64,000 bases of DNA from a bacterium. Lineage in GTDB: Bacteria > Electryoneota > JAOADG01. Made by a program: the position numbers and the translations under genes. Location of the stretch: assembly GCA_963681965.1 (NCBI GenBank), contig OY820579.1, positions 3,584,001 through 3,648,000 of the forward strand. Reading direction: 5' to 3'. This document shows, one piece after another, positions 1,766 to 58,940 of this stretch; within the stretch, counting starts at the first letter, position 1, and every line of letters begins with the position of its first letter. The notes below the pieces were generated by a model. The model ran no database searches. It saw nothing but the letters and a program-made list of their open reading frames with translations, and was not told the origin of the DNA.

Positions 1766-2055
1766 GTAGGGGCGGACCCCCGTGTCCGCCCGTTTTTTTT
1801 ATCTTATTTTTATCCTTTCCCTTCTTTTTTTATTCTTATTCTTTTCATTTCTTTCTTACATCTTTCATTCTTTCCCCAATTTCCATTCCCTATCCCCTAA
1901 TCCCTATCTTGTTCGTAGGGGCGTATGGCATACGCCCAATCTTGTATCTTGTTCAGTCATTGCGAGGAATGCGCCGAAAGGCGCATGACGTGGCAACCGC
2001 GCAGCGCTCACCGAAGGCAATCTCTCTTTTTCGTAGGGGCGTATGGCATGCGCCC
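1766..2055 (+). repeat. Cluster of GTAG-type REP-like palindromes
   Basis: GTAG+GGGCGGAC..GTCCGCCC (1766-1791), GTAG+GGGCGTATG..ATACGCCC (1915-1937), a third copy at 2033-2055, plus a GTCATTGCGAG..GCGCCGAAAGGCGC..GGCAACC palindrome (~1956-1998). The first also has a T-tract and may terminate the upstream operon. Confidence 0.75.
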
Positions 2056-2067
2056 AATCTTTTTTCA

Positions 2068-2441
2068 GTACTGCCGATCTCCGAATCGGCGCTTTTATCA
2101 TTTCCAGCTAGCTTTGAAAGAAATCCAAACAAACAAAAGAATGCCCAATCGGAGTTGGGCAGTACTGCCGATCTCCGAATCGGCTCTTTTATCGGTTTCA
2201 GTTGGCTATTAAATGAAAACAAACAAAAGAAAAAGATGCCCAATCGGAGTTGGGAAGTACTGCCGATCTCCGAATCGGCTCTTTTATCGTTTTCAGTTGG
2301 CTTTTAAATGAAAACAAACAAAAGAATGCCCAATCGGAGTTGGGAAGTACTGCCGATCTCCGAATCGGCTCTTTTGTCGTTTTCAGTTAGCTTTAAAAAG
2401 AAAACAAAAAAAAAAAACGCCCAATCGGAGTTGGGCAGTAC
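2068..2441. repeat. Tandem array of four ~90-95 bp REPIN/MITE-like units
   Basis: Each unit is GTAC-TGCCGATCTCCGAATCGGC...GCCCAATCGGAGTTGGG(C/A)A-GTAC; shared GTAC at 2068, 2162, 2257, 2347, 2438; the two ends are imperfect inverted copies and each is itself a hairpin. Confidence 0.85.
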
Positions 2442-2718
2442 TGCGGAAGCGGCTTTTGTATCCTTTTTGATGTCGCAACAATATCAACCATTCACTCTTC
2501 TCGGCGAGACAAATACAGAACCCTTCACAAACAATATTTATTCTTATTTAATAATATATTATAACAAACTCTCACACGATGTTTATTTTTTCACAATACT
2601 TCCGATTCCGATTTATTTTCGTTTCTTGCTGGTTCGCACTTGCATCTCTTTTTTTTTACTACTTTGTAAGTAGCCGTATCAAATTGCACTGCTTCAGCAG
2701 CACGGTATTCCAGAATTT

Positions 2719-2737
2719 GATAATGATAATGATTTCA
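2719..2737 (+). promoter_or_regulatory. Putative Fur box upstream of cassette-1 lipoprotein
   Basis: GATAATGATAATGATTTCA, 15/19 match to the classical GATAATGATAATCATTATC. Confidence 0.5.
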
Positions 2738-2880
2738 AAGTTGTTTCGCGGCTACCGAACTGCACCGAACGGCACATCCGATACGTGTCTTCGACGAACC
2801 ATGAACTGAAACCGGGGTTTTGCTTCGCGCACTGCAACAGTACAGAATCAATACCTTCCTACTCTCGAAAGGAATGAATC

Positions 2881-3783
2881 ATGAAAAAGCATCTGATCTG
2901 GATTACGCTTCTCCTCGCGTCGATTTTTGTGTATTTTGGTTGCTATAGCACCGACAATTCGAACAAGAACGGAATGAGTCCGAAAAACCATTCCGGCAAG
3001 GGTGGTGCTCAAATTGCTTCGGTTGGATTGCCGGAAGGTTGGGATGCAGTTGGCATTATTCACAACTGTGTGATGGAGTATGTAGACAGCGCACTATGCG
3101 TAGATTATAAAAACAACTGGAATGATTCAATATTGTCTTCAAATATCCGTAATTATGTAAATACATATATTAAAAATAACATAACTTTTGATACTATATT
3201 TTACACTTGTATGGATACAATGAATCTAAAATCATTGCACTCAAAACAAGAATTTATTGATTTAATAGATTATTATCGATCACAAAATTATATTACTCAA
3301 CAAGAATCTTTGTATAGTCACAGGTTTATTGACATGCTATTTAATGAAAAAATGAATGATACCTTATTTGACGACAGTCTTTTAGTCTTTAAAAATGATC
3401 TAGAGAAATTATCTTGGAAAGATGATGAGTTATTTCTCCCAACTATATTATCAGTCGCAATGCATAGTTGGGAATATGCAAAACATCGCGGTAAATTTAA
3501 CCCGCAACCAGTTGAAGATACTGTTATTATTCCCATTTCATTAGATCCTGGTTTATTAAGTTCGGATCTTTGGGGAGCAGCAGCTGGCTTTGCAGCTGGT
3601 AGAACCTTTGGATGGATTGGAGAACAAATTATCATTAATAAAGGTTTGGCTGCAATACCTGGTTTTGGACAAGGAATGGTTATAATCGGTTCAGCATGGG
3701 GTGCTGGCTATAATTCAGCCAAATACAATGCTTGGTCAATAACGACAGGTCAATGGTTAATCTGGCCACTCGTAATCTGGTAA
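2881..3783 (+). CDS. Lipoprotein with C-terminal glycine-zipper/hydrophobic tail (putative toxin, cassette 1)
   Basis: Signal peptide ending VYFG-C21; AAGGA RBS; AT-rich body; tail DLWGAAAGFAAG...GSAWGAG; first 55 aa identical to 6092..6898. Confidence 0.75.
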   Translation: MKKHLIWITLLLASIFVYFGCYSTDNSNKNGMSPKNHSGKGGAQIASVGLPEGWDAVGIIHNCVMEYVDSALCVDYKNNWNDSILSSNIRNYVNTYIKNNITFDTIFYTCMDTMNLKSLHSKQEFIDLIDYYRSQNYITQQESLYSHRFIDMLFNEKMNDTLFDDSLLVFKNDLEKLSWKDDELFLPTILSVAMHSWEYAKHRGKFNPQPVEDTVIIPISLDPGLLSSDLWGAAAGFAAGRTFGWIGEQIIINKGLAAIPGFGQGMVIIGSAWGAGYNSAKYNAWSITTGQWLIWPLVIW

Positions 3784-3927
3784 TTTCTTTACTTTCTACA
3801 ATAGTGATTTGCTTGATAATGTGCAAGAAGATTCTATCATTTAGTGCTGAAGATTCTTTTTGTCCAGAAGTCAAGTTTATTCTTCCTGAAACTTTTCTCA
3901 ATTTCTTCGAATGGAAGCAAGTGAAAT

Positions 3928-4227
3928 ATGAGCACAATCTTCATTTATGCTATTACTGTACTGTTTATTTCTGTTGCTATTCTATTAACATTTCACTTTT
4001 TTATGAGAAATAAACGTACATCTTATTCAGTCGAAGCATTATTACATAGCAATAAAGTAAATACTTTTATTCTATTATATATTGCTTTATGGCTAATAAT
4101 TGCATCCGATCATGTTGATATCGGCGTTTTCGGCTTTCGGTATCATGGATTATTTTACGTTTGTTGCCTTGGTTTATTGATTGGAATTGCTGATCTTATC
4201 TATAAGTATATCAATAAAAATAAATGA
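3928..4227 (+). CDS. Small membrane protein (putative immunity protein)
   Basis: 99 aa, about 3 TM; clear paralog of 5003..5311 (shared KVNTFILL, SDHVD, FGFxxHG). Confidence 0.75.
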   Translation: MSTIFIYAITVLFISVAILLTFHFFMRNKRTSYSVEALLHSNKVNTFILLYIALWLIIASDHVDIGVFGFRYHGLFYVCCLGLLIGIADLIYKYINKNK

Positions 4228-4286
4228 TCCTCAATCGATCATTCTGACCAAGAGTTTGTATTCAATTTCAGTAACTGATCGATATC

Positions 4287-4310
4287 GGCGGAACACACGA
4301 TTCGCCTTGA
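4287..4310. repeat. Degenerate copy of the cassette-end hairpin
   Basis: GGCGGAACACACGATTCGCCTTGA resembles GGCGGACCATTCGATCCGCCTTGA. Confidence 0.5.
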
Positions 4311-4400
4311 TCAAATTCCAGTCCCGGAAATTAATCGTAATATTTCCGGATTGATAGGCATACAAGAGGAGGGGCAACTCGAGCTACCTCTGAGGACACC

Positions 4401-4733
4401 ATGTTGTCGATCAATCTCAGTTCATTTGAAATTAGCTTGATAGCTGGAATTTTTGTGCTATTTTTGAATTTTCTTAAAATTCTGACGGTCGAGCTGCATC
4501 AAAATGAAGGATTCAAAATACTTCCAATTTTTGGCATATCGTTTACGATTGGAGGGTATTTCAGTCTTATCTTTCTTGTTCTTACAACAATGACATCACA
4601 AAAGGTAATGATCGAAGATTTATTTTTAGCTACCTTTTGCGTAGTCACATTATGTTTCATAGTCAATGGAATTAGATCCTTAGTACATTTTAAACAAACC
4701 ATTAAGGCTTCACATTCTCTTAAATCGAATTGA
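4401..4733 (+). CDS. Small membrane protein (putative orphan immunity protein)
   Basis: 110 aa, about 3 TM, GAGGA RBS, followed by the shared hairpin. Confidence 0.65.
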   Translation: MLSINLSSFEISLIAGIFVLFLNFLKILTVELHQNEGFKILPIFGISFTIGGYFSLIFLVLTTMTSQKVMIEDLFLATFCVVTLCFIVNGIRSLVHFKQTIKASHSLKSN

Positions 4734-4763
4734 AGAGGATTTATTCAAAGTCGAAATAATGAA

Positions 4764-4789
4764 CAAGGCGGACCATTCGATCCGCCTTG
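4764..4789. terminator. Cassette-end hairpin / intrinsic terminator copy
   Basis: CAAGGCGGA-CCATTCGA-TCCGCCTTG followed by a T-rich stretch. Confidence 0.65.
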
Positions 4790-5002
4790 ATCCATTTTTC
4801 AATTTCTCGTTCCTCTATTACCGATATAGATATTGAATTGGAGATATCTAAAAACAATTTTACTTGACCCAAAAATATACTATCTTAACAACACAGTTGT
4901 TTTTTAACAAGACATCTTAACACCAAGTTAATGATTTATTATCTGAAGTAGCAGATTATGTATCCAAAGGCAATTTACTAAGATCGGTAGCTCGGAGATA
5001 CG

Positions 5003-5311
5003 ATGAATTCATTCACAATATATATCTACGCATTCGGGGTACTACTTCTTTCTGTTCCATTGTTGTTTGTATTCCATATTCTCACAAGAAATGTGCATTC
5101 AGCCTTCTCAACCGAAGTTCTGTTGCATCGATACAAAGTAAATACTTTTATTCTTCTGTTTATAATATTATGGTTGAGCCTCGTTTCCGATCATGTCGAC
5201 ATGAATTCGTTCGGTTTTCAATTTCACGGTTTCTATTACATCTGTTTTCTTGGATTCTTAATTGCACTGGCTGATCTATTTTTAAAACATTTCAATAAAA
5301 AACGGGATTAA
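5003..5311 (+). CDS. Small membrane protein, paralog of 3928..4227 (putative orphan immunity protein)
   Basis: 102 aa; colinear with 3928..4227; GGAG RBS. Confidence 0.75.
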   Translation: MNSFTIYIYAFGVLLLSVPLLFVFHILTRNVHSAFSTEVLLHRYKVNTFILLFIILWLSLVSDHVDMNSFGFQFHGFYYICFLGFLIALADLFLKHFNKKRD

Positions 5312-5374
5312 TCAACAGTCTATCTTAAATCTAAGGTGAAAGATCTTACGAAATCTACGAGTCTGGAAAACTCA

Positions 5375-5503
5375 AACAAGGCGGACCATTCGATCCGCCT
5401 TGTTCATTTTTCCCACGATCGAAGTTGTTCGCTACCGCTTATGGCACTCGACACAACTCATGTTCTTGTGGCAGGCAAAGCAATTTTCGTGCAGCGCAAC
5501 CTT
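5375..5503. repeat. Direct-repeat copy of the hairpin plus the 3' end of the cytochrome c gene (11505-11628)
   Basis: Near-identical to 11505-11628; minus strand reads KVALHENCFACHKNMSCVECHKR*. Confidence 0.9.
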
Positions 5504-5513
5504 GACCCCAGCT

Positions 5514-6255
5514 TCTTTTCGGAGGGGCGTCTGGCATATGCCCGATCTTTTTTCAGTACTGCCGATCTCCGAATCGGCTCTTTTGTCGTTTTCAGTTAGC
5601 TTTAAAAAGAAAACAAAAAAAAAAAACGCCCAATCGGAGTTGGGCAGTATTGCGGAAGCGGCTTTTGTATCCTTTTTGATGTCGCAACAATATCAACCAT
5701 TCACTCTTCTCGGCGAGACAAATACAGAACCCTTCACAAATAATTATTTATTCTTATTTAATAATATATTATAACAAACTCTCACACGATGTTTATTTTT
5801 TCACAATACTTCCGAATCCGATTTATTTTCATTTCTTGCTGGTTCACACTTGCATCTCTTTTTTTTTTACTACTTTGTAAGTAGCCGTATCAAATTGCAC
5901 TGCTTCAGCAGCACGGTATTCCAGAATTTGATAATGATAATGATTTCAAAGTTGTTTCGCGGCGACCGAACTGCACCGAACGGCACATCCGATAGGAGTC
6001 TTCGACGAACCATGAACTGAAACCGGGGTTTTGCTTCGCGCACTGCAACAGTACAGAATCAATACCTTCCTACTCTCGAAAGGAATGAATCATGAAAAAG
6101 CATCTGATCTGGATTACGCTTCTCCTCGCGTCGATTTTTGTGTATTTTGGTTGCTATAGTACCGACAATTCAAACAAGAACGGGATGAGTCCGAAAAACC
6201 ATTCCGGCAAGGGTGGAGCTCAAATTGCTTCGGTAGGATTGCCGGAAGGATGGGA
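5514..6255 (+). repeat. Cassette-2 constant region: decayed REP, one REPIN unit, leader and first 55 codons
   Basis: From 5556 on it is near-identical to 2347-3045; identity stops abruptly after the codons for LPEGWD. Confidence 0.9.
5930..5948 (+). promoter_or_regulatory. Putative Fur box upstream of cassette-2 lipoprotein
   Basis: Same GATAATGATAATGATTTCA as 2719-2737. Confidence 0.5.
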
Positions 6256-6898
6256 TAAAGCTGGGATCGATCACAACAAAGCAATGGAATATGCATATAA
6301 TTTTTTTAAAGACAAAATAGATTCAACATGGATAAATGATTCAATAATAAATGTAACGAAAAATATTATGATGAGATATTTTATTGATTCATTAAAATAC
6401 GATTCAAATAATTTATATTTCAAATTCGACAATATATTATTCAACAAATACACACTTGATACAGTAATAAATAATTTAAATATATTACTAGATAGCAATT
6501 TAATGACAACACGAGAGTATAATTATTCTTTGAGAATGTTTAATTTTTTATTCGATAGCTCGGTTACTGATAGTATACTTGGAGATAGTATTAATTTATT
6601 TATAAATGACTTAAACAAAATCGAATGGAACAACGATGAAAAATTATTATTTGTTTTTTCAAGTATAATGAAATATAGCTATGAATTTCACACTTCACAT
6701 AATAAAGACGGTAAATTGGATCGATTCAGTGTCAAAGAGTTAATAATAGCTGACATTCTTGGTGGTGTCGTTGGCGCGGTAATAGGAATTCGCGGTGGCT
6801 GGGTTGCAATGCTTGGATGTGGTGCGTTTTTTGCTTTCTTTTTTTCATTCCTAGATTTTGCTTTGCAAGTAATACGGGATAATGGATTGTTTTGGTAA
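6092..6898 (+). CDS. Lipoprotein with C-terminal glycine-zipper/hydrophobic tail (putative toxin, cassette 2)
   Basis: Same lipoprotein leader as 2881..3783; diverged homologous middle (GxxHNxxMEY; NDLxKxxWxxDE); tail ADILGGVVGAVIGIRGGWVAMLGCG. Confidence 0.75.
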   Translation: MKKHLIWITLLLASIFVYFGCYSTDNSNKNGMSPKNHSGKGGAQIASVGLPEGWDKAGIDHNKAMEYAYNFFKDKIDSTWINDSIINVTKNIMMRYFIDSLKYDSNNLYFKFDNILFNKYTLDTVINNLNILLDSNLMTTREYNYSLRMFNFLFDSSVTDSILGDSINLFINDLNKIEWNNDEKLLFVFSSIMKYSYEFHTSHNKDGKLDRFSVKELIIADILGGVVGAVIGIRGGWVAMLGCGAFFAFFFSFLDFALQVIRDNGLFW

Positions 6899-6913
6899 CT
6901 GATAGAGGCAAAT

Positions 6914-7273
6914 ATGAACTGGACTATAATATTCTGGGTATTTATTACGATCCAATCAATCTTATTACTATTTATCGTTTACTTCATCGATAAAATCATC
7001 TCGTTGCCGAAGTACTTTCCCTTTTTCAAAACTAAGATAACAAAAAGCTTAGTGAAAAATCGGGAGTCAAACGATTCGATCCAAAAAGATCGAAATGTTT
7101 ATCGATTTACTTGGTTATATACAACACTCTGGTTCGGTGCGTTCTCGCCAGCACATTTACTTCCGAAATGGGGAGAAAACGCTGGAATTTTCGTGATGCT
7201 TTTTTCTCTATGTGTTTATTTATTTGCACTTTTCATATATCGAAAGAAAACAAATACCGCTCAAACGGAGTAA
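6914..7273 (+). CDS. Small membrane protein (putative cognate immunity, cassette 2)
   Basis: 119 aa, about 3 TM, starts 15 nt after the lipoprotein stop, GAGG RBS. Confidence 0.7.
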   Translation: MNWTIIFWVFITIQSILLLFIVYFIDKIISLPKYFPFFKTKITKSLVKNRESNDSIQKDRNVYRFTWLYTTLWFGAFSPAHLLPKWGENAGIFVMLFSLCVYLFALFIYRKKTNTAQTE

Positions 7274-7311
7274 TCAGTCACTTTCCAAATCCAATTTTTT
7301 TTTAAAAACTA

Positions 7312-7610
7312 AAGGCGGACCATTCGATCCGCCTTGTTCAATTTTCCCACGATGGAAGTCGTTCGCTACCGCTTATGGCACTCGACGCAACTCATGTTCT
7401 TGTGGCAGGCAAAGCAATTTTCGTGCAGCGCAACCTTGACCCCAGCTTCTTTTCGGAGGGGCGTCTGGCATATGCCCGATTTTTTTTCAGTACTGCCGAT
7501 CTCCGAATCGGCTCTTTTGTCGTTTTCAGTTAGCTTTAAAAAAAGAAAACAAAAAAAAAAAACGCCCAATCGGAGTTGGGCAGTACTGCGGAAGCGGCTT
7601 TTGTATCCTT
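7312..7610. repeat. Second copy of hairpin + cytochrome c 3' end + REP/REPIN (cassette 2/3 junction)
   Basis: Near-identical to ~5378-5674, including the same junction GCAACCTT|GACCCCAGC. Confidence 0.9.
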
Positions 7611-8830
7611 TGAAACCTCTGATTTAATCCCACGTTTTTGATGATTATCTCGTATTGCCGTTAGAGCCTATAACGGAGTTTACAATGTCCCTCGTTCCCT
7701 CTACCCGCGAATGGATTACCTTCGGTGAACTAGACGATCAGTGTCGCCGTCACAAGAAGAGCATGCTTGATGAGATCGATCGGTTGATCGATTTTCGTCC
7801 GATCGAGTCGCTGCTAATGCGGATGTACCGCGGCACCCGCGGTCGCCCCCCGATCCCGCCGTTGATGTTGTTCAAAGCGTTGCTGTTGGAACAATGGTAC
7901 GGTCTGTCGGATGTACAAGTGGTGCAGGAGATCCACGACCGACGCAGCTTCGAACGGTTTATCGGTTTTACCGTTCGCGATTATCTGTTGGACGATTCGA
8001 CCCTGGTTCGGTTCCGTCAACGGTTGCGCGACTTTCGTTACGAGAAGGAATTGTTCAATGAATTGAACCGTCAGTTGGCTTCGTTCGGTCTATTCGTTCG
8101 CAGTTGTACACTGGTCGACGCGACATTGGTCAAGGGTGCCACGACTGCGGGCTCCACCCGTGCCGACGGTACTCCGGTCGACCCCGATGTAACCATCACG
8201 GTCCGCAAAGATAAACCGGTCGACGGGATGAAAGTGCATGTTTCGATGGATCATGAAAGCGAGCTGATCGAAGCAGTCGACTTGACATCGAATATTGTTC
8301 ACGACTCGCAGGTGTTCGAGGCATTGCTTCCCGACGACACCGGTGGCGTGTTTGCCGACAAGGCGTACGATTCGACGGCACACCGCAACTTGATTCACGC
8401 CCGCCACTGGTACGACGGCATTCTTCACAAGGCAAGACGCAATCGTCGCTTGACGGAACATGAGCGATGCCGCAATCGATCCAACTCACGGATCCGAAGC
8501 CGGATCGAAGCCAAGATGAACGACTTGAAGCGGTGGGGACACCTCGCGCGTTTGCGCTATTACGGTATCGAACGGAATCTGACACAAGTCTACTTTACCG
8601 CCATGGCAGTGAACTTGAAACGGGCCTGCAAACTGGTGCTGGTAACCTGAAAAACGATAAATCGGAGAGTGAACTCTGCCCAAGCAGCAGAAATCACCGA
8701 AAATCATCAAAAAATCCAACCAAAATCGACCCCAATTACACTAAAATTTGCAATTCATTTCGAAAATCGTCGAAATCAGACTGATGAGGCAAAAGAGAGT
8801 GATACAAAAGTGATTTTTTCAGAGGTTTCA
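7611..8830 (+). mobile_element. IS5-family insertion sequence
   Basis: Perfect 12-bp terminal inverted repeats TGAAACCTCTGA/TCAGAGGTTTCA; flanking CTT duplicated relative to the empty sites at ~2463 and ~5672. Confidence 0.9.
7685..8650 (+). CDS. IS5-family DDE transposase
   Basis: GRPPIPPLMLFKALLLEQWYGLSD N-domain; LVDAT / ADKAYD / RSRIE..DLK DDE motifs; GGAG before ATG 7685. Confidence 0.92.
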   Translation: MSLVPSTREWITFGELDDQCRRHKKSMLDEIDRLIDFRPIESLLMRMYRGTRGRPPIPPLMLFKALLLEQWYGLSDVQVVQEIHDRRSFERFIGFTVRDYLLDDSTLVRFRQRLRDFRYEKELFNELNRQLASFGLFVRSCTLVDATLVKGATTAGSTRADGTPVDPDVTITVRKDKPVDGMKVHVSMDHESELIEAVDLTSNIVHDSQVFEALLPDDTGGVFADKAYDSTAHRNLIHARHWYDGILHKARRNRRLTEHERCRNRSNSRIRSRIEAKMNDLKRWGHLARLRYYGIERNLTQVYFTAMAVNLKRACKLVLVT

Positions 8831-9030
8831 CTTTTTGATGTCGCAACAATATCAACCATTCACTCTTCTCGGCGAGACAAATACAGAACCCTTCACAAAT
8901 AATTATTTATTCTTATTTAATAATATATTATAACAAACTCTCACACGATGTTTATTTTTTCACAATACTTCAGAATCCGATTTATTTTCGTTTCTTGCTG
9001 GTTCGCACTTGCATCTCTTTTTTTTTACTA
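8831..9030 (+). repeat. Continuation of the cassette constant leader after IS5
   Basis: Matches ~2463-2660 and ~5672-5872; diverges at ~9030, before the Fur-box-like site. Confidence 0.88.
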
Positions 9031-9485
9031 GTTTAGGAATAATTTCAATAATCATCTTTAATTATATACTCAATTATTCACTTATCAGGAGTGTGTTATG
9101 GTAAAGAATATTAACACCAATGCAATTTCTGCATTATCGATTGGATCATTCGCACAGGTTGCATCTTGGTTTGATTATTTAGCCGGTCCGAAAATTGATG
9201 ATTTCGGTCTATGGAAATCTGGTAACTTTCTTGTGGATCACTTCGAAACTATTTACGAAACAATCGAGGATTTTGTTCTTTTAAAATCAATTAAACTTTA
9301 CGACTGCAATCAAAATAGTGCTACTATTTCTTATTTAGCAGACGTTCCATCCAATACTTCGTATGCAGAATTTCAATTCAACGGAGTATTAGAAGCTACT
9401 ATGTCTGAAGTGGTCCCGTTTTCCTGGACAGTTTGTTAGTTAGATTGCTTTGCCCGATATTTTGATAGCAAGTATGGAGTTGAAG

Positions 9486-9788
9486 ATGTCGGGAATACGA
9501 CGGACATTATCGCCTGATTTCAAGGCGAAGGTAGCATTAGCCGCACTCAAGGGTGATAAGACAGTATCTGAACTATCAAGTCTATATCAAGTTCATCCGA
9601 ACCAGATCAGTCAGTGGAAGAAGCAGCTTTTGGATCATGCTGCATCGGTATTTGGCAAAACTGAATCGTCAGGAAGTGAAGAAGTAGATCTTAAGGAGCT
9701 GCGCGCCAAGATCGGCCAGTTAACGATGGAAAACGATTTTTTAGCAAAGGGGCTCAGTCGCTTGGGCGTTCTGAGCGTGAAGCGCTGA
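9486..9788 (+). CDS. IS3 transposase OrfA (HTH)
   Basis: FKAKVALAALKGDKTVSELSSLYQVHPNQISQWKK; overlaps the OrfB frame at -1, candidate slip site GATTTTTTAG near 9737. Confidence 0.88.
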   Translation: MSGIRRTLSPDFKAKVALAALKGDKTVSELSSLYQVHPNQISQWKKQLLDHAASVFGKTESSGSEEVDLKELRAKIGQLTMENDFLAKGLSRLGVLSVKR

Positions 9789-9811
9789 TCGATCCGGGTG
9801 CCCGTTTACCG

Positions 9812-10621
9812 TTGGTTCAGCAGTGTTCTTTAATCAAGGTTCCACGCAGCAGTTACTACTATCGCCCTGTTCCGCTTGATTCGAACAATTTGATGCTGTT
9901 GCGAACGCTGGATGAGCTTCACCTGAAGGTTCCGTTCTACGGTGCCCGTAAACTGGTGGTGGAGTTATCGAAGCAGGGTATCGATGTTGGTCGGAAAAAG
10001 GTTCGTTCCTTGCTACGCATCCTCGGTCTGGAAGCATTGTACCGCAAGCCGCGTACGACGGTTCCTGACAAGGAACACAAGATTTATCCGTACTTGCTTC
10101 GCGACTTGACGGTTGATCGCGCGAATCAAGTATGGGCGACCGACATCACGTACATCCCACTGGCAAAGGGTTTTGTGTACCTGGTGGCGGTGATCGACTG
10201 GTTCAGTCGCAAGGTGTTGTCGTGGCGGTTGTCGAATACGCTGGATACGCATTCCTGTGTGGAAGCATTGAAGGATGCGTTGTCGAAGTATGGGAAGCCT
10301 GAGATCTTCAACAGCGATCAAGGGTGTCAGTTTACCAGCGTCGCATTTACGGATGTTTTGAAAGAGGCAGGCGTTCGGATCAGTATGGATGGTAAAGGTC
10401 GGTGGATGGATAACCGTTTTGTCGAACGATTGTGGAAGTCGTTGAAGTACGAGGAAGTATACTTGAAAGGGTACGATTCAGTTCGCATTGCAGAGCGCAG
10501 TATCGGTGAATATTTTTTGTTTTACAATGCGGAGCGTTCCCATCAAGCTTTGGACTGTCGCACCCCAGATGAGGTCTACATCGATAGTCTTAGCAAATTT
10601 TCTTGTCAGGCAGCTGCCTGA
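9812..10621 (+). CDS. IS3 transposase OrfB (rve/DDE)
   Basis: [31 protein letters not shown]. Confidence 0.92.
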
Positions 10622-11229
10622 CAAGAAACAGCAGAAAGTGGGCAGTGCAATCTAACTAAGATTCGCACAAAACTGTCCAAACGGAGGGTACCACCTCAGT
10701 CTGAAAGCTGGGATGATGTTATCAATACTATGTCCGTTAAACTAACATCACCACAAGACATAAACGCTGATTTAACAATTATAATGTCAAATTATTCCAA
10801 ACAATCGAGTGATGTTACGATCTACTTTGCAAACAATGTATATTCATTTACAATGAATTTCGCTAACCCAGCTGTAAATACCGAACTACTTGCATGGAAA
10901 CAAGCAATCATGAATTACCATTCTCAAATAGTTGTTAATTCTATTACATTGGAAGCTTGTATGCCAAGCTTGGGCACTATGGGGAATACTGGTTGTACTG
11001 TGGATAATATAAGTCCGAAAGATTGTGCATGTCTTGCTGCGTCTTGTTTAGTTGGAGCAGGAGTTGGCACTGGTGTTTTGATTATTACAAATGGATTAGC
11101 AGCAGGTTGGGGACAATTAGTTGGAGCTGTGGGTGGCTTCTCTGCGATTGGCGCTGCCAACTGGGCAGCTCAAAAAGCATATGATATCAATGTTGGGCGA
11201 GTAAGACTAATCCAGCATTAGGAGTCGTT

Positions 11230-11439
11230 ATGAAAAAAAAATCTGTAGTACTATATCTCTTAGCTTCATTGATTCTCTCTGTTTATTTTCTTTTTTCGGG
11301 AGCGAATCAATGTTTTAAATCGGGTATGGACTTCGCAGTGTTAACTGCTATCACGATGTATATTTGTGGATTCGCTGGTACAATATTGAGTGCTGCATCA
11401 CTGTTTAATTTTGTTCTCAAGAAAAATAGTAGTAAGTAA
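11230..11439 (+). CDS. Small 2-TM membrane protein (putative cognate immunity, cassette 3)
   Basis: 69 aa, AGGAG RBS overlapping the upstream stop, two hydrophobic segments. Confidence 0.65.
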   Translation: MKKKSVVLYLLASLILSVYFLFSGANQCFKSGMDFAVLTAITMYICGFAGTILSAASLFNFVLKKNSSK

Positions 11440-11504
11440 AGCCGAATCCTAAATTCATCGCGAAAATATCAAATCAAGTCTATTTACTCTGATAATTTTA
11501 CTAC

Positions 11505-11530
11505 AGGCGGACCGTTCGGTCCGCCTTGTT
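11505..11530. terminator. Hairpin between the convergent cassette locus and cytochrome c gene
   Basis: AGGCGGACCG-TT-CGGTCCGCCT. Confidence 0.65.
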
Positions 11531-11556
11531 CATTTTCCCACGATGGAAGTCGTTCG

Positions 11557-11964
11557 CTACCGCTTATGGCACTCGACGCAACTCATGTTCTTGTGGCAGG
11601 CAAAGCAATTTTCGTGCAGCGCAACCTTCGATTCCGAGATGTCGATCGGTTTCACTTCCTTCTGATGGCAATGCTTGCAACTCTCCACATGGTGGCAACG
11701 AATACATTCCAATTTAAAATCGGTGACGTGTTTCTTGTGATTGAAGATGATCTGCGTTCCGCCAAGATACTTCGTCTGGAAAACATATTCATCGGGAATC
11801 GGTCGTACCCGATTCTGCCAGTCGTATAGAATCGACGTCGAATCGAGTTTCTCTTTGACTTCCCCGGTCGAGCCGTGTTTCGATTCGGCGGGGGTCGATG
11901 GACTGGTTTCGGCAATCGCAATCACGAACATTGCCAATAGAACAAACAGAATAATGCGTTTCAT
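11557..11964 (-). CDS. Periplasmic tetraheme c-type cytochrome (c3/c7-like)
   Basis: Sec signal; FNHKKH; four CxxCH (CIRCH, CKHCH, CFACH, CVECH). Confidence 0.88.
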   Translation of the reverse strand: MKRIILFVLLAMFVIAIAETSPSTPAESKHGSTGEVKEKLDSTSILYDWQNRVRPIPDEYVFQTKYLGGTQIIFNHKKHVTDFKLECIRCHHVESCKHCHQKEVKPIDISESKVALHENCFACHKNMSCVECHKR

Positions 11965-11984
11965 TGTATCCTCACACTCTTCGA

Positions 11985-13193
11985 TTAATGCGTTGTCTCA
12001 TGCGTCAAATGCGCGTCCAGCACGTCCGCTTCGATCCCTTCGTGTTCGCTAAGTTCCGGGAACACCGGGAAGAATCGGGCAATAAAGTAAAATACCAGCA
12101 TCCCGCAGGTGAGCAGGAACAGCGAAATGGAAACTTCCGTATAGGCAGGATAGTAGTTCCAGTGCGAATTGCGCAACATCCCTATCCAACTGACATTGAA
12201 CCGGTTATAGAGAATGCCGGCAACGACCATGAAACTGGCAGTGAACAACCATTTGGGATTCATGCGCAATTTCTTGATTGCGATAATGCCAATCGGAATG
12301 ATCAGCAGCGCCATTTCTAAAATGAAGTGGATGCTTTCGAATTCGCCGGAAAATACTTTATTCGCAACGCCGCGAACGAACAGGTCCTGAATCTTGATAC
12401 CGGTATAGACGATCAAAGCGACTTGGAGAAAATACGCGAGTTCGATCAAAATCGGCGTCTCGAGACCGCGCTTGAAAACCCTCGCGCTGAATGTCGATTC
12501 GACAATCACCATCGCCGGACCGACTGTCACTGCCGACAAGAAGAATAGCAGCGGAATGATCGGCGTGTACCATAATGGATGCAGTTTTTCCGGGACAATC
12601 AAGAAAACCGATCCGAGTGACGACTGGTGCAATGTCGAAAGCAACACACCGGCAATAACCAGCGGAATCGTAATTCGCCGAAGAATTTTCAGCGGCTTCA
12701 CCAGATTGAATTTCTCGAGCACCACCGGAACGAATTCCAGAAAGAGCACGGTGAGGTATAGCATCACGCACCAGGCGACTTCAAACATCACCGAGTGTGG
12801 ATTGCCCATGATCATCGGATGCCAGACATTGAACCACTTACCAAGGTCGTACAACAATCCGACTGCCACCAGCAGATAGCCGAGAAACGCGGTCAAAACC
12901 GTTGGACGCACAATTGCATGGAATTTCTCGTAGCCGATGACATACACCAGAAAGCAAAGCGTGAACCCGCCTGCCGCCAATGCAACACCACCGACGACAT
13001 CGAAACTGATCCAGAGACCCCAGGGGAAATTGTCGGCAAGATTCGTGACCTGACCCAGTCCGAAGATGAACCGCTTGAGCGTCAGGATAGTACCTTGAAT
13101 CAGAATGAAAATAAAAATCAACCAAATAAATTTGCGCTTGAAGCTCATTCCGCGAATTTCATCGCGAATTGCAGTAAGAATCGTCTGAATCAT
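11985..13193 (-). CDS. NrfD/HybB/HmcC-family integral membrane quinone-interacting subunit
   Basis: PWGLWISFDV..GVALAAGGF, SVMFEVAWCVMLY, LSTLHQSSLG; about 10 TM. Confidence 0.9.
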   Translation of the reverse strand: MIQTILTAIRDEIRGMSFKRKFIWLIFIFILIQGTILTLKRFIFGLGQVTNLADNFPWGLWISFDVVGGVALAAGGFTLCFLVYVIGYEKFHAIVRPTVLTAFLGYLLVAVGLLYDLGKWFNVWHPMIMGNPHSVMFEVAWCVMLYLTVLFLEFVPVVLEKFNLVKPLKILRRITIPLVIAGVLLSTLHQSSLGSVFLIVPEKLHPLWYTPIIPLLFFLSAVTVGPAMVIVESTFSARVFKRGLETPILIELAYFLQVALIVYTGIKIQDLFVRGVANKVFSGEFESIHFILEMALLIIPIGIIAIKKLRMNPKWLFTASFMVVAGILYNRFNVSWIGMLRNSHWNYYPAYTEVSISLFLLTCGMLVFYFIARFFPVFPELSEHEGIEADVLDAHLTHETTH

Positions 13194-13960
13194 TTCTCGT
13201 GACCGCCTTTCTTTTTATTGCGGTCACTGTGTTCGGCGATATCTTCCGTCAGCGTAATCCGGCGATTGACGATCCATGACAGACCACCGAGCAGTAGTCC
13301 TCCGGTAATGACAATATTGGGAATCTTGCTCATCACCGTCCAAGTCAATTCCGGCAGCGACGTGTTGCCCATATCGACCCGGAAACCCATGTCGGTAAAG
13401 GGAATTCCCGAGAGCATCATGACCGAGGTACCACCGACGTCATTCTCACCGTAGATATAATCGACATATTGATTCGGGAAATTCTTGATGCGGCGTTTTG
13501 CGATCGCAAGCAATTTATCCCGATCGCCGAATCGCGTCGCTCCGGTGGGACACGCCCAGGCACAGGCAGTCTCCCCCCCCTTCTGGATCCGCTGAAAACA
13601 CATGATGCACTTGCGCACAACCGGTACAGCCTTGTCCCATTCGTACTTCGGTACTTGAAATGGACACGCCATCATACAGTACCGGCAACCGAAACACTTA
13701 TCGGCGTGATAGATAACCGGACCTTCAGGCGTCTTCTCCATTGCAGCGACCGGACATACCGAGACACAGACCGGATGTTGGCAATGCATACACATTTTGC
13801 GGAAGAATTGATTCCCGCGCTTCATCACGATGGTATAATTCTGATAATTCCATTTATCGTGAGGCGGGTTTTCGGGTAGATTGTTCTCTTCGGCACAAGC
13901 GCGCTCGCAGGCAGAACAACCAATACACTTGGTGAAATCGAGTAGAATCGACTTAGACAT
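13190..13960 (-). CDS. HybA/HmcB/FdnH-like 4x[4Fe-4S] protein with C-terminal TM
   Basis: CIGCSAC..C, CMHCQHPVCVSVCP, CFGCRYCMMACP, CIMC..CAWACP. Confidence 0.9.
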   Translation of the reverse strand: MSKSILLDFTKCIGCSACERACAEENNLPENPPHDKWNYQNYTIVMKRGNQFFRKMCMHCQHPVCVSVCPVAAMEKTPEGPVIYHADKCFGCRYCMMACPFQVPKYEWDKAVPVVRKCIMCFQRIQKGGETACAWACPTGATRFGDRDKLLAIAKRRIKNFPNQYVDYIYGENDVGGTSVMMLSGIPFTDMGFRVDMGNTSLPELTWTVMSKIPNIVITGGLLLGGLSWIVNRRITLTEDIAEHSDRNKKKGGHEK

Positions 13961-14450
13961 ACTATCCCCCCATGATTGCCAAAATGAGTCCCCCCCATTG
14001 GCAAATCATGAATCAAACGAGTCAATCTAGTAACAAGAGGTGAGGTGGTTTTTCGATGGAAGGTGGTAAATTGTGTAAAAAAATACGGATTCTCGACGGT
14101 AAATCAAAATCTCCTGTCAAATAATTATAGTATTTTTAGGAATTTAATCATTCTATTGATATCACTAATGTTACTCCATTTGTTTTCATTAAAGCATAAT
14201 TTCACAAGGTCGAATTTGCCAAAATTCCGTGTTTGTAAGTACTCGTATCGAAATCTTAGCACTGGTCATTAACTAGTTTGTGATGAAGAGTTACGAAGTA
14301 TTTAAACGGAGTAATCGTATCTAGAGGAGCGAGAGTAAATCTCGTATGACTGAGATACGTGAAATGATAAAATATTATTCCCATGCAACCTTCTTCCCGC
14401 AGGAAGCATCATACTATGCGTTGCAATCAATCGATCTATTTGGAAGGTTT

Positions 14451-16709
14451 ATGATTCTGAAACACAAACTACGCAATACAATCTGGGTACTTACCTTATT
14501 GTTAACGATGATTCTTCCCGTCCATGCGACCATCTTGTACACGTTATCGGGAATCGTGAAAGACGCCACTTCACGCGAAACATTGCCCGGAGTGACCGTT
14601 CGGGTCGATCCGATCGAAAAGGGCGCCATCACCAATATCGGCGGATTTTATTGTATTCAATCGCTTCCTCCCGGCGATTACACCGTTCGTTTCACTTACA
14701 TCGGCTACACCACCATCACAAAGCAGATCGCTATTGTCGATAAAGATCTCATCTTGAATCAATTGCTGCAACAATCCTCAATCGAACGTAATGTGATTAC
14801 GGTCGAAGGTGAGCGAGAGAAATACCGTCAGAAAATGACCGTAGGTGAAGTAAAACTCTCGGTGAAGCAATTGATGATGGTGCCGAAGATCGCCGAACCG
14901 GATCTCTTCCGTACACTCCAGCTCTTACCCGGCGTGCTTTCCGCATCCGATTTCAGCACCGGCTTGAATGTCTGGGGCGGATCGCCGGATCAGAATTTAA
15001 TCACACTCGATGGAATCGATGTGTACAATCCATCGCATCTCGGTGGATTGTTTTCGACATTCAATATGGATGCCATCAAAGAAGCCACACTGATCAAAGG
15101 GGCGTATCCTGCCGAATATGGCGGGCGGTTATCGAGTGTGTTGTCAGTATGGAATCGCGAAGGGAACCGCGAATCGTTTCAAGGCAAAGCTCAAGTCTCG
15201 GTACTATCCTCTGCGGCGACATTAGAGGGACCCATTCCGAAAGGGAGCTGGCTGTTGTCGGGTCGACGCACTTATATCGACCTATTCACCAAAGCGATGA
15301 AACAGATGAAGGCGACCGACACCGAATTTCCCTACTACTTTTACGACGCACAGACGCGTGTGAATCGCGATTTAGCAAATGGCGACCGGTTATCGGTCTC
15401 AGGCTACTTCGGACGAGATGTACTCGATTACAAAGACGACTACGACAATAAGCTCAATTTGAATTGGGGGAATCGAACTGGATCGGTGATGTACACTAAG
15501 ATCTTTTCACCCCATTTTTATTCACAGAGTTTGATTGCAATCTCGCAATACGACAGCAAACTCGATTTCGATGCCAATGGCGACAAATTCAGTTTCTCCA
15601 ACGGTATCACCGATTACACTGCCAAGATGGATGTTTTCGCCTTTCCCGGAAAAGACATTGAGCTGAAATTCGGTCACGAATCGAAATACCTGATGTTTTA
15701 CCTCCGTAGCGTAGGACAAGGAGAAGAATTCGCGAATGTGAAGGAACAATCGTATCTCGGTGCGCTATACCTGCAGACGAAATATACCCCTACTCCTCTG
15801 CTCTCGATCCAACCCGGAATTCGATACAACTATTTCCAGCGCGGCAATTACAGTGCAATCGAACCGCGAATTTCAATCAAATATCGAACTTCTGTAAACA
15901 GCTCGATTACTGCGGCTTTCGGTCACTATCAACAATTCATCAATCTCGCCAGTATCGGTGGTGGGTCGGGTTTCTTATCTGTGATGGATATTTGGGCACC
16001 GGTGGATAAGACGCTGAAACCGGGAAAAGCCGAGCATTACACCATGGCTTACGAGACCGAATTGACCAACGATATCCGCTTCGAGACGGAAGCATATTAC
16101 AAGAACTATAACCACATGGTCGAATTTAAAAATATTGCGACCGAAGAATCCGATCTCAAATCGCAATTCTACGAAGGACGTGGGTGGGCATGGGGTTTGG
16201 ATATCACTTTGCGGAAGGATTACGGCGACTGGACGGGATGGATCGGTTACGGTTTGGGTTTCTCGAAACGACAATTTCCGGCAATTGATAGTGGTCGCGC
16301 CTTCTATCCCAAGTGGGACAAACGCAACACCTTCAATTTGGTGAATACCTATCGAACGTCGAAACGCGGCGAATTGAGCGTGCGCTGGACTTATAGCACC
16401 GGTCAACCGTATACGCTGGCAGCGGGATATTACCGCTCCGCGATGCCGAATGACGCCGATCCCAACCGGTTAATTCCGGGTCGAAAAAACAACGCACGGC
16501 TTGCACCGTATCATCGACTCGATGTCGGATACACGATCAAATACGAGAAATCGTGGGGAACGATCTCACCCTACTTTGAAGTCATCAATCTCTATAATCG
16601 CGCCAACGTGTTTACCGTCGATTATGATTTCAAAAATCAACCCCCGAAGAAGGTTGAGATCAATCAATTCCCATTCTTACCGACATTCGGTGTCACGGCA
16701 ACCTTTTAA
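14451..16709 (+). CDS. TonB-dependent receptor with N-terminal CarboxypepD_reg-like domain
   Basis: LSGIVKDATSRETLPGVTV; plug motifs LQLLPGV, GGSPDQNLITLDG, YPAEYGGRLSSV; YHRLD; terminal Phe. Confidence 0.92.
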   Translation: MILKHKLRNTIWVLTLLLTMILPVHATILYTLSGIVKDATSRETLPGVTVRVDPIEKGAITNIGGFYCIQSLPPGDYTVRFTYIGYTTITKQIAIVDKDLILNQLLQQSSIERNVITVEGEREKYRQKMTVGEVKLSVKQLMMVPKIAEPDLFRTLQLLPGVLSASDFSTGLNVWGGSPDQNLITLDGIDVYNPSHLGGLFSTFNMDAIKEATLIKGAYPAEYGGRLSSVLSVWNREGNRESFQGKAQVSVLSSAATLEGPIPKGSWLLSGRRTYIDLFTKAMKQMKATDTEFPYYFYDAQTRVNRDLANGDRLSVSGYFGRDVLDYKDDYDNKLNLNWGNRTGSVMYTKIFSPHFYSQSLIAISQYDSKLDFDANGDKFSFSNGITDYTAKMDVFAFPGKDIELKFGHESKYLMFYLRSVGQGEEFANVKEQSYLGALYLQTKYTPTPLLSIQPGIRYNYFQRGNYSAIEPRISIKYRTSVNSSITAAFGHYQQFINLASIGGGSGFLSVMDIWAPVDKTLKPGKAEHYTMAYETELTNDIRFETEAYYKNYNHMVEFKNIATEESDLKSQFYEGRGWAWGLDITLRKDYGDWTGWIGYGLGFSKRQFPAIDSGRAFYPKWDKRNTFNLVNTYRTSKRGELSVRWTYSTGQPYTLAAGYYRSAMPNDADPNRLIPGRKNNARLAPYHRLDVGYTIKYEKSWGTISPYFEVINLYNRANVFTVDYDFKNQPPKKVEINQFPFLPTFGVTATF

Positions 16710-16724
16710 GCGATCGAGTACAAT

Positions 16725-17591
16725 ATGAAAAAGATAATTCTCATTCTAAGTTTATTACTGATCGGATTACTAACGATTACTGGCTGCGAGAATCCATCCG
16801 ATCCCGAGCAATTCGATCCGCGAATCGTACTCGATGCCTATCTGTCGATCGGCGATACCGTAGCCGCGAATTTATCGTGGTCGCAATCTGTGATGGATGT
16901 TTACGATCCGTTAGTAACTGCGATTCCGGATGCGCGGGTGATTGCTTATATCGACAATGTTCCCGACACGTTGCAATATCGCTTCGAAAGCAGACCGACA
17001 TACACCATCATCCACGGCGATACAGTGCGTGATACTCTTCGATACAGTCGATATTATTCCCGGACACAGATCGTGCACTCAACCACAAGTTATCGACTCG
17101 TTGCCACTTTACCCGATGGCAGAGCTGCCTACGGTGAAACCCGATCACCCTCTCCATTCCGAATGATCAGCGATTCAACTACTGTTCGCTCCGGAGATAC
17201 GATCTCATTCGGTCACGGCTATGGCGCACGTATGAAATTGAAATGGCAACCGGATGCGCTCGCTCAACAATATTGGTTAGTGGCGGTATGCCACGATACG
17301 ACTGCACCGAAGCTGCGAACGGAATCGGGAATGGGTCACGGAGAAGATCCTGATCGAACGTCGTATTGGACACAAGATGCTTCTGACGCGTTTGTACCGT
17401 GGTTCTTTTTTAACTATACCGGTTGGCATACCGTTTTAGTTTACAATATCGATCAAGCGTTCAAACGCTATCTTTGGACACTAAACCGTAATCTAGATCA
17501 AGCCGATAAGACCGAAATGAATGTGGTAGGTGGGTTGGGAGTGGTAACAGCATTCGGCTGCGATTCAGTTCGAGTATTTATTAAACCTTAA
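16725..17591 (+). CDS. Lipoprotein partner of the TBDR (DUF4249-like)
   Basis: Lipobox ITG-C; C-terminal NVVGGLGVV; directly downstream of the TBDR. Confidence 0.75.
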   Translation: MKKIILILSLLLIGLLTITGCENPSDPEQFDPRIVLDAYLSIGDTVAANLSWSQSVMDVYDPLVTAIPDARVIAYIDNVPDTLQYRFESRPTYTIIHGDTVRDTLRYSRYYSRTQIVHSTTSYRLVATLPDGRAAYGETRSPSPFRMISDSTTVRSGDTISFGHGYGARMKLKWQPDALAQQYWLVAVCHDTTAPKLRTESGMGHGEDPDRTSYWTQDASDAFVPWFFFNYTGWHTVLVYNIDQAFKRYLWTLNRNLDQADKTEMNVVGGLGVVTAFGCDSVRVFIKP

Positions 17592-17603
17592 GCTGCTATA
17601 AAA

Positions 17604-17635
17604 AAAATCCCCCATCCAGCAAGATGGGGGATTTT
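17604..17635. terminator. Bidirectional intrinsic terminator
   Basis: AAAATCCCCCATC-cagcaa-GATGGGGGATTTT between convergent genes. Confidence 0.85.
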
Positions 17636-17648
17636 CCATTTTAGAGTT

Positions 17649-18998: not shown

Positions 18999-19026
18999 TG
19001 TGATATCCTTTATGATTTGTTAATGG

Positions 19027-19041
19027 TGATAGCGATTATCA
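19027..19041 (-). promoter_or_regulatory. Putative Fur box
   Basis: TGATAATCGCTATCA on the minus strand vs the 7-1-7 consensus TGATAATnATTATCA, ~30 nt upstream of ATG 18998. Confidence 0.5.
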
Positions 19042-19292
19042 TTCAGGTTATCCTGATAGACAAAACGCTGCCCCCCCCCCGCATTAATTAAGAGTACGAA
19101 CAATCCTCTTCGACTGTGAAAGATTTCTCGTGGAGAATTGCATTACGACCCGAGTCACAATTTCCAAAATAATTGAATAAGTATTTACAATAAGTTGGGT
19201 TTGAATACGATTGCTGTAAAACAGTGCGTTATATGTACAAAAAAAAACCGGAAACTTCAAGAGAAGTTTCCGGCAGATATTCGAACAATTGA

Positions 19293-54453: not shown

Positions 54454-54490
54454 TTCCTACTCCTCCTCTTTCCTCGAAAAAAAATAACTT

Positions 54491-55723: not shown

Positions 55724-55787
55724 TCCGCAAATACTTCTTGAAATTGGTTACTGAGTTCGTTCAATTCGAATTCAAATAAATATTCGA

Positions 55788-58928: not shown

Positions 58929-58940
58929 AGTGTTTATTCC

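Follow-up and report, generated by a model that had tools for sequence, protein, structure and literature searches.

A tandem array of putative lipoproteins and linked small membrane proteins in an Electryoneota genome, with candidate toxin/immunity pairs

Results

Organisation of the array

We analysed a 64-kb stretch of DNA from a bacterium of the phylum Electryoneota (GCA_963681965.1, contig OY820579.1, positions 3,584,001 to 3,648,000; G000:C1:3584001-3648000 in our numbering, hereafter the window). The genome is a single contig of 4.24 Mb. Near its left end the window carries an array of cassettes, in which a gene for a putative lipoprotein, or for a protein of similar build, is followed by genes for small membrane proteins. 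Self-BLAST and repeat finding confirm that the array consists of three head-to-tail units with constant flanks, as a preliminary description of this DNA had reported, and the AT-rich nature of the variable cores is likewise borne out: their G+C content is 30-37%, against a genome mean of 47.4%. Such composition is rare in this genome, where only 23 of 4244 windows of 1 kb reach 34% G+C or less. The array stretch appears to be of foreign origin and was probably acquired horizontally.

Each core is framed by a left and a right arm. The left arm is made up of a diverged palindrome resembling repetitive extragenic palindromic (REP) elements, at least one copy of a repeat of 90-95 nucleotides (nt), a promoter-like block and a leader; it reaches into the large open reading frame (ORF) of units 1 and 2, where it covers the first 67 codons. 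By self-BLAST, positions 2346-3082 and 5555-6293 are 96% identical over 739 nt, and the part of the left arm common to all three units (2463-2665, 5672-5876 and 8831-9034) is 97.5% identical. The right arm consists of a G+C-rich hairpin, rated as a terminator in either direction, and, after it, 97 nt from the 3' end of a small cytochrome c gene. Its copies at 5375-5503, 7312-7437 and 11505-11628 share 95-97% identity in self-BLAST, and repeat finding puts the 97-nt part at 96-100%. Two further self-BLAST alignments, each at 97% identity, pair 5378-5675 with 7312-7611 and 7308-7437 with 11500-11628.

The components of the arms fall into locus-specific and dispersed elements. The 97-nt cytochrome c 3' end is present in three copies (5407-5503, 7341-7437 and 11532-11628), with no other in the 4.24-Mb genome, and the final 72 coding nt of the cytochrome c gene itself fall within this segment. 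All four genomic copies of the terminator hairpin lie inside the array locus. The 23-nt core of the REP-like palindrome has 57 matches genome-wide, two of them in the locus, and is thus a genuine dispersed repeat; the hairpin modules of the 90-95-nt repeat are also dispersed, with 70 genomic matches, and a single unit of this repeat is retained at the start of units 2 and 3. Rfam searches with E up to 1 returned only chance matches of microRNA models on the repeats, and the 5' leader folds no better than shuffled sequence (z=0.11). Unit 1 looks composite, since it holds three small membrane ORFs and an extra internal hairpin at 4764-4789.

A conserved block lies ahead of each of the four cassettes of this genome, namely the three of the array (2640-2680, 5850-5890 and 9010-9030) and one at a second locus described below (L003, ~1270-1310). 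It is composed of a short G+C-containing motif, some ten consecutive T and a motif that contains TTTG. The homology of unit 3 to the other units stops exactly at this block, which may be a shared promoter.

The large proteins of units 1 and 2

The large proteins of units 1 and 2 are intact and belong to one family. Their residues 1-55 are identical; after the motif LPEGWD identity drops abruptly to ~25%, and past residue 55 the two proteins resemble each other no more than they resemble members found in other taxonomic families of the phylum. A profile built from six members and searched against 1.84 billion representative proteins gave 287 matches at E<=0.001, 46 at E<=1e-10 and 23 at E<=1e-30. 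Twenty family matches were looked up; seven of these were named, all as 'hypothetical protein' except for one automatic label. In the ESM Atlas, the neighbours of one stored homologue form clusters of hypothetical proteins; where their phylum is known, it is most often Bacteroidota. The family is covered by no Pfam or NCBIfam model; the Pfam comparison included 24 members, the two of the window and 22 homologues. A word-indexed protein search returned only the unit protein itself and its paralogue, while scans of genome contigs with P0055 and P0141 and tblastn of plasmid and phage records returned nothing. In full-text searches of the literature we found no description of the family; those on glycine-zipper toxins, bacteriocins, immunity proteins and lipoproteins yielded only the systems compared below.

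Among the best 150 profile matches, 132 are 230-330 amino acids (aa) long and 102 have a lipobox-like N-terminus by a crude rule. In an alignment of 132 members the lipobox Cys is retained in at least 90%, and the same threshold identifies Gly58, His61, Asn62, Ser196 and Asp229 (numbered as in the unit 1 protein) as near-invariant; these five residues could form a network on which the hairpin docks, or an active site. The C-terminal tail is rich in motifs of the type small-xxx-small-xxx-small. Within the last 80 residues, at least five such motifs are present in 122 of the 150 members compared with 13 of 644 size-matched ORFs of the genome, and at least three in 142 members compared with 83 of the 644 ORFs.

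An AlphaFold2 model of the unit 1 protein based on the six-sequence alignment (predicted local distance difference test score, pLDDT, 70.5; predicted TM-score, pTM, 0.69) is all-helical, with nine helices. It places a disordered tether at residues 18-48, seven helices at 56-202 and a terminal helical hairpin at 223-253 and 262-288. From these features the large family appears to comprise undescribed, putatively lipidated proteins that combine a lipobox Cys with a helical domain and a C-terminal glycine-zipper hairpin. Long variants of 412-515 aa have, in place of the lipobox, an N-terminal extension of ~220 aa, which matches no known family and has a signal-peptide-like start.

A linked family of small membrane proteins

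The ORFs directly downstream of the two large genes encode small membrane proteins that are distant homologues of each other. Members of this partner family have 79-126 aa and three hydrophobic segments, with a Trp in the second segment that is invariant in 12 sequences. They also have a basic loop after the first segment and a basic C-terminal end; by the positive-inside rule, this charge distribution suggests a topology with the N-terminus outside and the C-terminus inside.

We built a profile solely from the partners of other genomes and scanned it against the 20,188 small ORFs of this genome. Exactly seven had E<0.001: three in the window (3928-4227, 5003-5311 and 6914-7273), one at the second locus, and those at C1:3260656, C1:3741542 and C1:4061311. 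Four of the seven lie downstream of large family genes, in the window or at the second locus. Among these, 5003-5311 is an extra copy without a large gene of its own. The genome thus holds seven partner genes against three large genes, a small multipass ORF adjoins each of the latter, and four partners have no adjoining large gene. The remaining small membrane ORF of unit 1, at 4401-4733, was considered as a further family member and rejected (hhalign probability 0.3% against the partner alignment); it has no homologue among the 79 genomes of the phylum.

The second cassette locus (G000:C1:3257123-3260970; L003, L004 and L053) contains a family lipoprotein gene split by an IS5-family insertion sequence (IS), with a similar signal peptide and promoter-like block. 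The split gene is followed by a 113-aa partner, a 292-aa ORF, presumably a transposase, and an unpaired 104-aa partner-family gene. Two other unpaired partner genes, G000:C1:3741542-3741922 (plus strand) and 4061311-4061673 (minus strand), sit in short patches of ~38-39% G+C between housekeeping genes, and no large family gene adjoins either of them.

Distribution of the two families was followed in 79 species genomes of the phylum, this genome included, some of which are incomplete. The large family is present in 8 and the partner family in 13 of the 79, and every genome with a large gene (8/8) also has a partner. In the other genomes, the large gene has a small membrane partner ORF immediately downstream on the same strand at all eight of its loci. 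Partners without any large gene occur in G003, G019, G069 and G076, with a weak, stop-ridden match in G036, and surplus unpaired copies also occur in G043 and G018. Six unpaired partner loci were inspected, and at none of them is a large family gene adjacent. For 11 pairs, the distances between large proteins and those between partners are correlated (Mantel r=0.578, a value reached by 1 of 5000 permutations). The large family was not found in the three nearest genomes, one of the same genus and two of the same family, where the genes that flank the array lie on different contigs.

The third unit

Unit 3 has the same layout and a different content. Its left arm is interrupted by an IS5-family element and its large gene by an IS3-family element, across which the reading frame is preserved, so that a protein of ~275 aa is obtained only with the IS3 element read out. 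This protein has a Gly/Ala-rich C-terminal tail and no lipobox. When read through with X at the break it gave zero signal for the lipoprotein family, of which it was rejected as a member, and homologue searches with it returned none. The small ORF that follows was tested against the partner family and likewise rejected. The preliminary description had given every unit a large protein with a Gly/Ala-rich tail, placed all three in one lipoprotein-delivered toxin family and followed each by a different small transmembrane (TM) protein. For units 1 and 2 the intact protein, the common family and the lipobox hold; unit 3 departs from this in its split gene, its lack of homology and its missing lipobox. 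The small proteins are more numerous than supposed in unit 1, which has three, and the partners of units 1 and 2 are distantly homologous; that of unit 3 is not a member of the partner family.

The IS5-family element is present in six genomic copies of 99.8-100% identity, and another copy (G000:C1:3257319-3258537) disrupts the third paralogue of the family, which lies at the second locus; one element has thus hit two of the four cassettes. The IS3-family element has ten genomic copies that span 90.7-100% identity and therefore are several diverged subfamilies. A screen of the genome for proteins with a Gly-rich tail followed by a small TM ORF, with thresholds set post hoc, retrieved two ORFs, both in array cassettes.

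Support for the assembly

The possibility, raised at the outset, that the repeats are an assembly artefact was checked by comparing the unique cores with Logan short-read contigs from four runs of two studies. Runs X1 and X2 contain long core contigs with 0 differences, and runs X4 and X5 cover the cores in part. In X1 the cores have depths of 16.3x, 18x, 21x and 18.4x, compared with 16.6x for a flanking contig of 40.7 kb, and are therefore single-copy; the leader common to units 1 and 2 is at ~28x and the IS5 element at ~109x, as expected for two and six copies. It is unlikely that units were collapsed or invented by the assembly. Since the short-read contigs end at repeats and bridge no two units, the order of the units is that of the complete assembly.

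In run X4, a contig over the unit 1 large gene (window 3278-4111) stands at 47x, with neighbouring parts of the locus at ~4-8x. Past 4111 its sequence departs from that of the window, and it may come from a related population in which this gene has different surroundings.

Discussion

A candidate membrane toxin and candidate immunity protein

For units 1 and 2 we propose that the large gene encodes a membrane-active lipoprotein toxin and the gene downstream an inner-membrane immunity protein, an interpretation that we hold with even confidence for and against. The product of the large gene would be exported by Sec and processed by signal peptidase II as a lipoprotein, and in its mature form would consist of a disordered tether and then a helical bundle ending in the glycine-zipper hairpin. 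The hairpin would insert in the cytoplasmic membrane of a sensitive cell and depolarise or permeabilise it. The downstream three-TM protein of the inner membrane would block the cognate hairpin within the membrane and so confer immunity, and the unpaired partner genes would provide orphan immunity against the toxins of neighbours. What the analysis shows directly is the anatomy of the repeats, the two protein families and their linkage, the orphan partners and the foreign base composition; that the large protein is lipidated, enters the membrane and is toxic, that the partner protects against it, and how it would be delivered are inferred.

The pattern resembles that of toxin/immunity pairs on several counts. 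It does so because the large gene never occurs without a partner in the genomes of the phylum and the partner is often alone or in surplus; because the proteins evolve fast, join a constant 5' part to a variable rest and sit in a foreign, IS-ridden island; and because a non-homologous cassette of the same build occupies the third slot. The earlier proposal of a toxin/immunity locus thus gains from the linkage at all eight loci, the orphan partners and the co-divergence of the two families.

Several results weigh against this interpretation. The first concerns relationship: no match to either the large or the partner protein was found in PHROGs, PADLOC, Pfam or NCBIfam, a sequence-profile search of the PDB gave nothing below E=0.4, Foldseek against the PDB gave nothing at E<=0.001, and the best Z of 5.3 in a VIA-align comparison with 48,161 chains is within the noise for helical models. 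The second concerns the partner. The preliminary expectation that homologues are followed by small membrane genes holds at the eight loci in other genomes of the phylum and fails at both of the distant family loci examined (2/2, on metagenome contigs), where the gene stands alone without a small membrane ORF downstream; the wider family therefore needs no linked partner. In addition, the Mantel correlation shows joint inheritance of the two genes, as judged from sequence distances, and not binding between the proteins. Third, the near-invariant His61, Asn62, Ser196 and Asp229, placed in the helical domain and not in the tail, hint at a function that the toxin model leaves unexplained. Glycine-zipper hairpins are also found in harmless outer-membrane lipoproteins such as SlyB (PMC12955049). 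Finally, neither the 15 kb upstream nor the remainder of the 64-kb window yielded a gene for secretion, lysis or maturation that could account for delivery to another cell, in line with the earlier remark that the locus has no transporter or maturation enzyme; nor is a type I, VI or VII secretion system linked within these limits.

Alternative interpretations

The main rival, which we consider rather unlikely, is a non-antagonistic envelope module. The large protein would be a structural or stress lipoprotein held by its glycine-zipper hairpin, the three-TM protein a partner in its assembly or anchoring, and the tandem copies paralogues diversifying under, for example, phages or predators that recognise surface lipoproteins. 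Such a role would suit the mostly stand-alone lipoproteins of the wider family, as at the two distant loci, and the hypothetical, commonly Bacteroidota clusters nearest in the ESM Atlas. It would equally suit the placing of near-invariant residues in the helical domain and the lack of delivery genes in the surveyed region; the joining of a glycine-zipper hairpin to a lipid anchor is, moreover, the architecture of SlyB (PMC12955049). An envelope module is harder to reconcile with so patchy a distribution (8 of the 79 genomes, and no member found in the three nearest ones) and with the foreign base composition. It also leaves aside why unpaired partners outnumber large genes and occur in genomes without one, and why the same slot holds a non-homologous protein of the same architecture. 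The tails themselves, scanned at E up to 10, match neither the Pfam glycine-zipper families nor those of the 17-kDa-antigen lipoproteins.

A minor rival, to which we give only a slight chance, is an anti-phage or superinfection-exclusion pair in which a membrane-depolarising lipoprotein, checked or triggered by the small partner, kills or shuts down the infected cell: an accessory AT-rich island with IS elements, a two-gene build with a membrane-active candidate and fast protein divergence would all be in keeping with it, but PADLOC and PHROGs give no match, phage genes are absent from the window and the 15 kb upstream, the tblastn search of phage and plasmid records was empty, and partner-only genomes and surplus partners are easier to explain by immunity to an outside toxin than by an abortive-infection pair.

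Returning to the toxin/immunity interpretation, we extend it tentatively, and with somewhat less than even confidence, beyond this locus. Widespread undescribed lipoproteins of this phylum and of Bacteroidota-like lineages may be membrane-permeabilising toxins that use general lipoprotein export without a dedicated secretion system, act from the cell surface, from vesicles or by contact, and are neutralised within the membrane by the three-TM immunity family; the locus may be a recombination-driven platform on which unrelated pairs are stacked and swapped. If so, interbacterial antagonism would gain new toxin and immunity families, in a phylum that has been little studied and that has substrates of type IX secretion (T9SS), and a function would be assigned to several hundred clusters of 'hypothetical' lipoproteins. 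These proteins would also be the second example, SitA of myxobacteria being the first, of toxins exported along the ordinary lipoprotein pathway, and the promoter arm and terminator arm would form a landing pad for unrelated cassettes without an integrase. Should the toxin interpretation be wrong, the linked families still define an unusually fast-evolving envelope module.

Comparison with known systems

The preliminary description had drawn parallels with microcins, the Cdz proteins, Tse4 and SitA. Neither for these nor for colicins did we find a link in sequence or fold; no compared system is related to the array proteins by sequence or detectable fold, and each fails at least one defining feature. 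By mechanism, the closest are the glycine-zipper systems CdzC/D-CdzI of Caulobacter, Tse4-Tsi4 of Pseudomonas, and LXG-T2-Imm2 and TelE of streptococci. Immunity to CdzC/D and Tse4 is provided by multipass proteins of the inner membrane, and the toxin gene of LXG clusters is immediately followed by its immunity gene (PMC12955049); three TM segments are predicted for CdzI (PMC5380434). The array resembles these systems in the repeated small-xxx-small motifs, the C-terminal helical region and the candidate immunity gene directly downstream, whose product is small and multipass. It differs in the lack of detectable sequence similarity, in the lipobox and in a conserved helical domain of ~170 residues, whereas Cdz proteins have only ~85 aa. 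Moreover, the Cdz, Tse4 and LXG toxins use type I, VI or VII secretion, none of which is linked to the array. The only hint of a known family came from two tails that matched the glycine-zipper part of DUF6861 at 19.7 and 21.2 bits, below the cut-off of 28.

By export, SitA is the closest. SitA/SitI are polymorphic lipoprotein toxins and cognate immunity genes, with several cassettes per genome (PMC5562445; PMC8546572), and share with the large proteins of units 1 and 2 the lipobox N-terminus and the constant N-terminal part followed by a variable rest. The C-terminal domains of SitA are nucleases (PMC5562445), whereas the array tail is a hydrophobic Gly/Ala-rich hairpin in which no enzyme domain was found. 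SitA transfer depends on TraA/B outer-membrane exchange, and SitA comes from a different phylum and has no sequence similarity to the array proteins.

In their soluble form, pore-forming colicins consist of an amphipathic helix bundle around a hydrophobic hairpin and are countered by an immunity protein in the cytoplasmic membrane (PMC9558359); the modelled array protein, with nine helices ending in a hydrophobic hairpin, would be of similar build. Unlike colicins it has no Pfam colicin-domain match, no receptor or translocation domains and no lysis gene, is putatively lipid-anchored, and has no colicin chain among its best structural matches. The ten-helix colicin bundle with its buried hydrophobic hairpin and the Bcl-2-like and diphtheria T-domain folds were all considered, and none stood out with Foldseek or VIA-align for a model of this pLDDT (70.5); a diphtheria-toxin homologue at Z 3.9 is noise. 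Lipoproteins of the SlyB/Pcp type share the lipid anchor and the alpha-helical glycine-zipper hairpin (PMC12955049), but the array proteins match none of the Pfam glycine-zipper families and are set apart by the large helical domain, the linked three-TM partner and the patchy accessory distribution. Since membership of each known family fails, we commit ourselves to the toxin/immunity interpretation only half-way.

Origin of the array

The cores appear to be old lineages joined behind a homogenised or exchanged 5' arm, and not recent duplicates, since identity between units 1 and 2 is so low past residue 55. Both internal junctions between cytochrome c and the REP-like repeat are identical, with 24 nt of cytochrome c and ~40 nt beyond, after which a single difference follows in the REP-like flank. 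Because the internal junctions are identical and three right arms accompany three units, we favour amplification of one founding segmental duplication. This duplication would have joined the cytochrome c 3' end to a REP-like repeat, and the cores would later have been filled or exchanged by recombination within the constant arms. The cassette in unit 3 would be unrelated to the others though built alike, and two IS elements would since have inactivated it.

Just to the left of unit 1, positions 1996-2010 match the last bases of the cytochrome c fragment (5489-5503) at 9 of 10 nt. This match may reflect microhomology at which the founding duplication occurred, a decayed fourth border or mere coincidence. 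As a degenerate border near position 2000 it would fit another account of how the array was built, namely site-specific tandem insertion at the 3' end of cytochrome c in the manner of an integron or integrative element, and integrative elements do leave repeated gene 3' ends at unit borders, as seen here. We regard this account as improbable: the 130-nt right arm has three copies for three units and not n+1, no integrase or recombinase other than IS transposases was found in the window or the 15 kb upstream, no tRNA gene was found, and identical internal junctions are what amplification of one founding junction would produce.

Features of the locus and neighbouring genes

Table 1. Features of the cassette array, in window coordinates, and long variants of the large family, in the coordinates of their own records
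Position	Strand	Feature	Evidence
1904-1948, 2022-2066	+	REP-like palindromic repeat, two copies, left array border	Repeat family D9
2067-2444	+	90-95-nt tandem repeat, 4.1 copies, two short hairpins each	Tandem Repeats Finder; family D1/D3
2346-3082	+	Unit 1 constant left arm: promoter-like block, 5' leader, signal peptide, tether	96% identical to 5555-6293
2881-3783	+	Unit 1 large gene, 300-aa putative lipoprotein, candidate membrane-active toxin	Intact ORF; all-helical model
3928-4227	+	Unit 1 partner, 99 aa, three TM segments, candidate immunity protein	Profile E=1.1e-10; TM scan
4401-4733	+	Unit 1 second small membrane ORF, 110 aa, ~three TM segments	
4764-4789	.	Additional terminator hairpin within unit 1	Locus-specific, bidirectional
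5003-5311	+	Unit 1 third small ORF, 102 aa, three TM segments, 55% identical to 3928-4227	Profile E=1.9e-7
5375-5503	.	Unit 1 right arm: hairpin 5375-5404 and 97-nt cytochrome c copy 5407-5503	Family D6
5504-6293	+	Unit 2 left arm: diverged REP-like repeat, one 95-nt repeat unit, leader, first 67 codons	
6092-6898	+	Unit 2 large gene, 268-aa putative lipoprotein, same family	Intact ORF
6914-7273	+	Unit 2 partner, 119 aa	Profile E=7.1e-5
7312-7437	.	Unit 2 right arm: terminator hairpin and second 97-nt copy of cytochrome c 3' end	
7438-9034	+	Unit 3 left arm, 7438-7611 and 8831-9034, split by IS5-family element 7612-8829	Transposase NF033581, E=4e-62
9098-11221	+	Unit 3 large gene, pieces 9098-9405 and 10699-11221	IS3-family element 9406-10698 between; IS3 transposase NF033516
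11230-11439	+	Unit 3 small ORF, 69 aa, two TM segments	ORF and TM scan
11505-11964	-	Terminator hairpin 11505-11526 and genuine small c3-type cytochrome gene 11557-11964	PF02085 E=3.9e-4, below cut-off
L006 691-2217; L015 1420-2769; P0009, P0011, P0022-P0024		Long family variants	

The array borders on an operon (window 11557-13960, minus strand) that encodes an HmcB-like iron-sulfur protein, an HmcC/NrfD-like membrane protein and a small c3-type cytochrome; the copies carried by the cassettes are of the 3' end of this cytochrome gene. Further genes lie at 14346-20636 and 53245-63916 of the window and in L055. They include a TonB-dependent receptor with a CarboxypepD_reg domain, a DUF4249 protein, several proteins with a type IX secretion C-terminal sorting domain, and a cell-division and cell-wall cluster with ftsZ, ftsA, ftsQ and mur genes.

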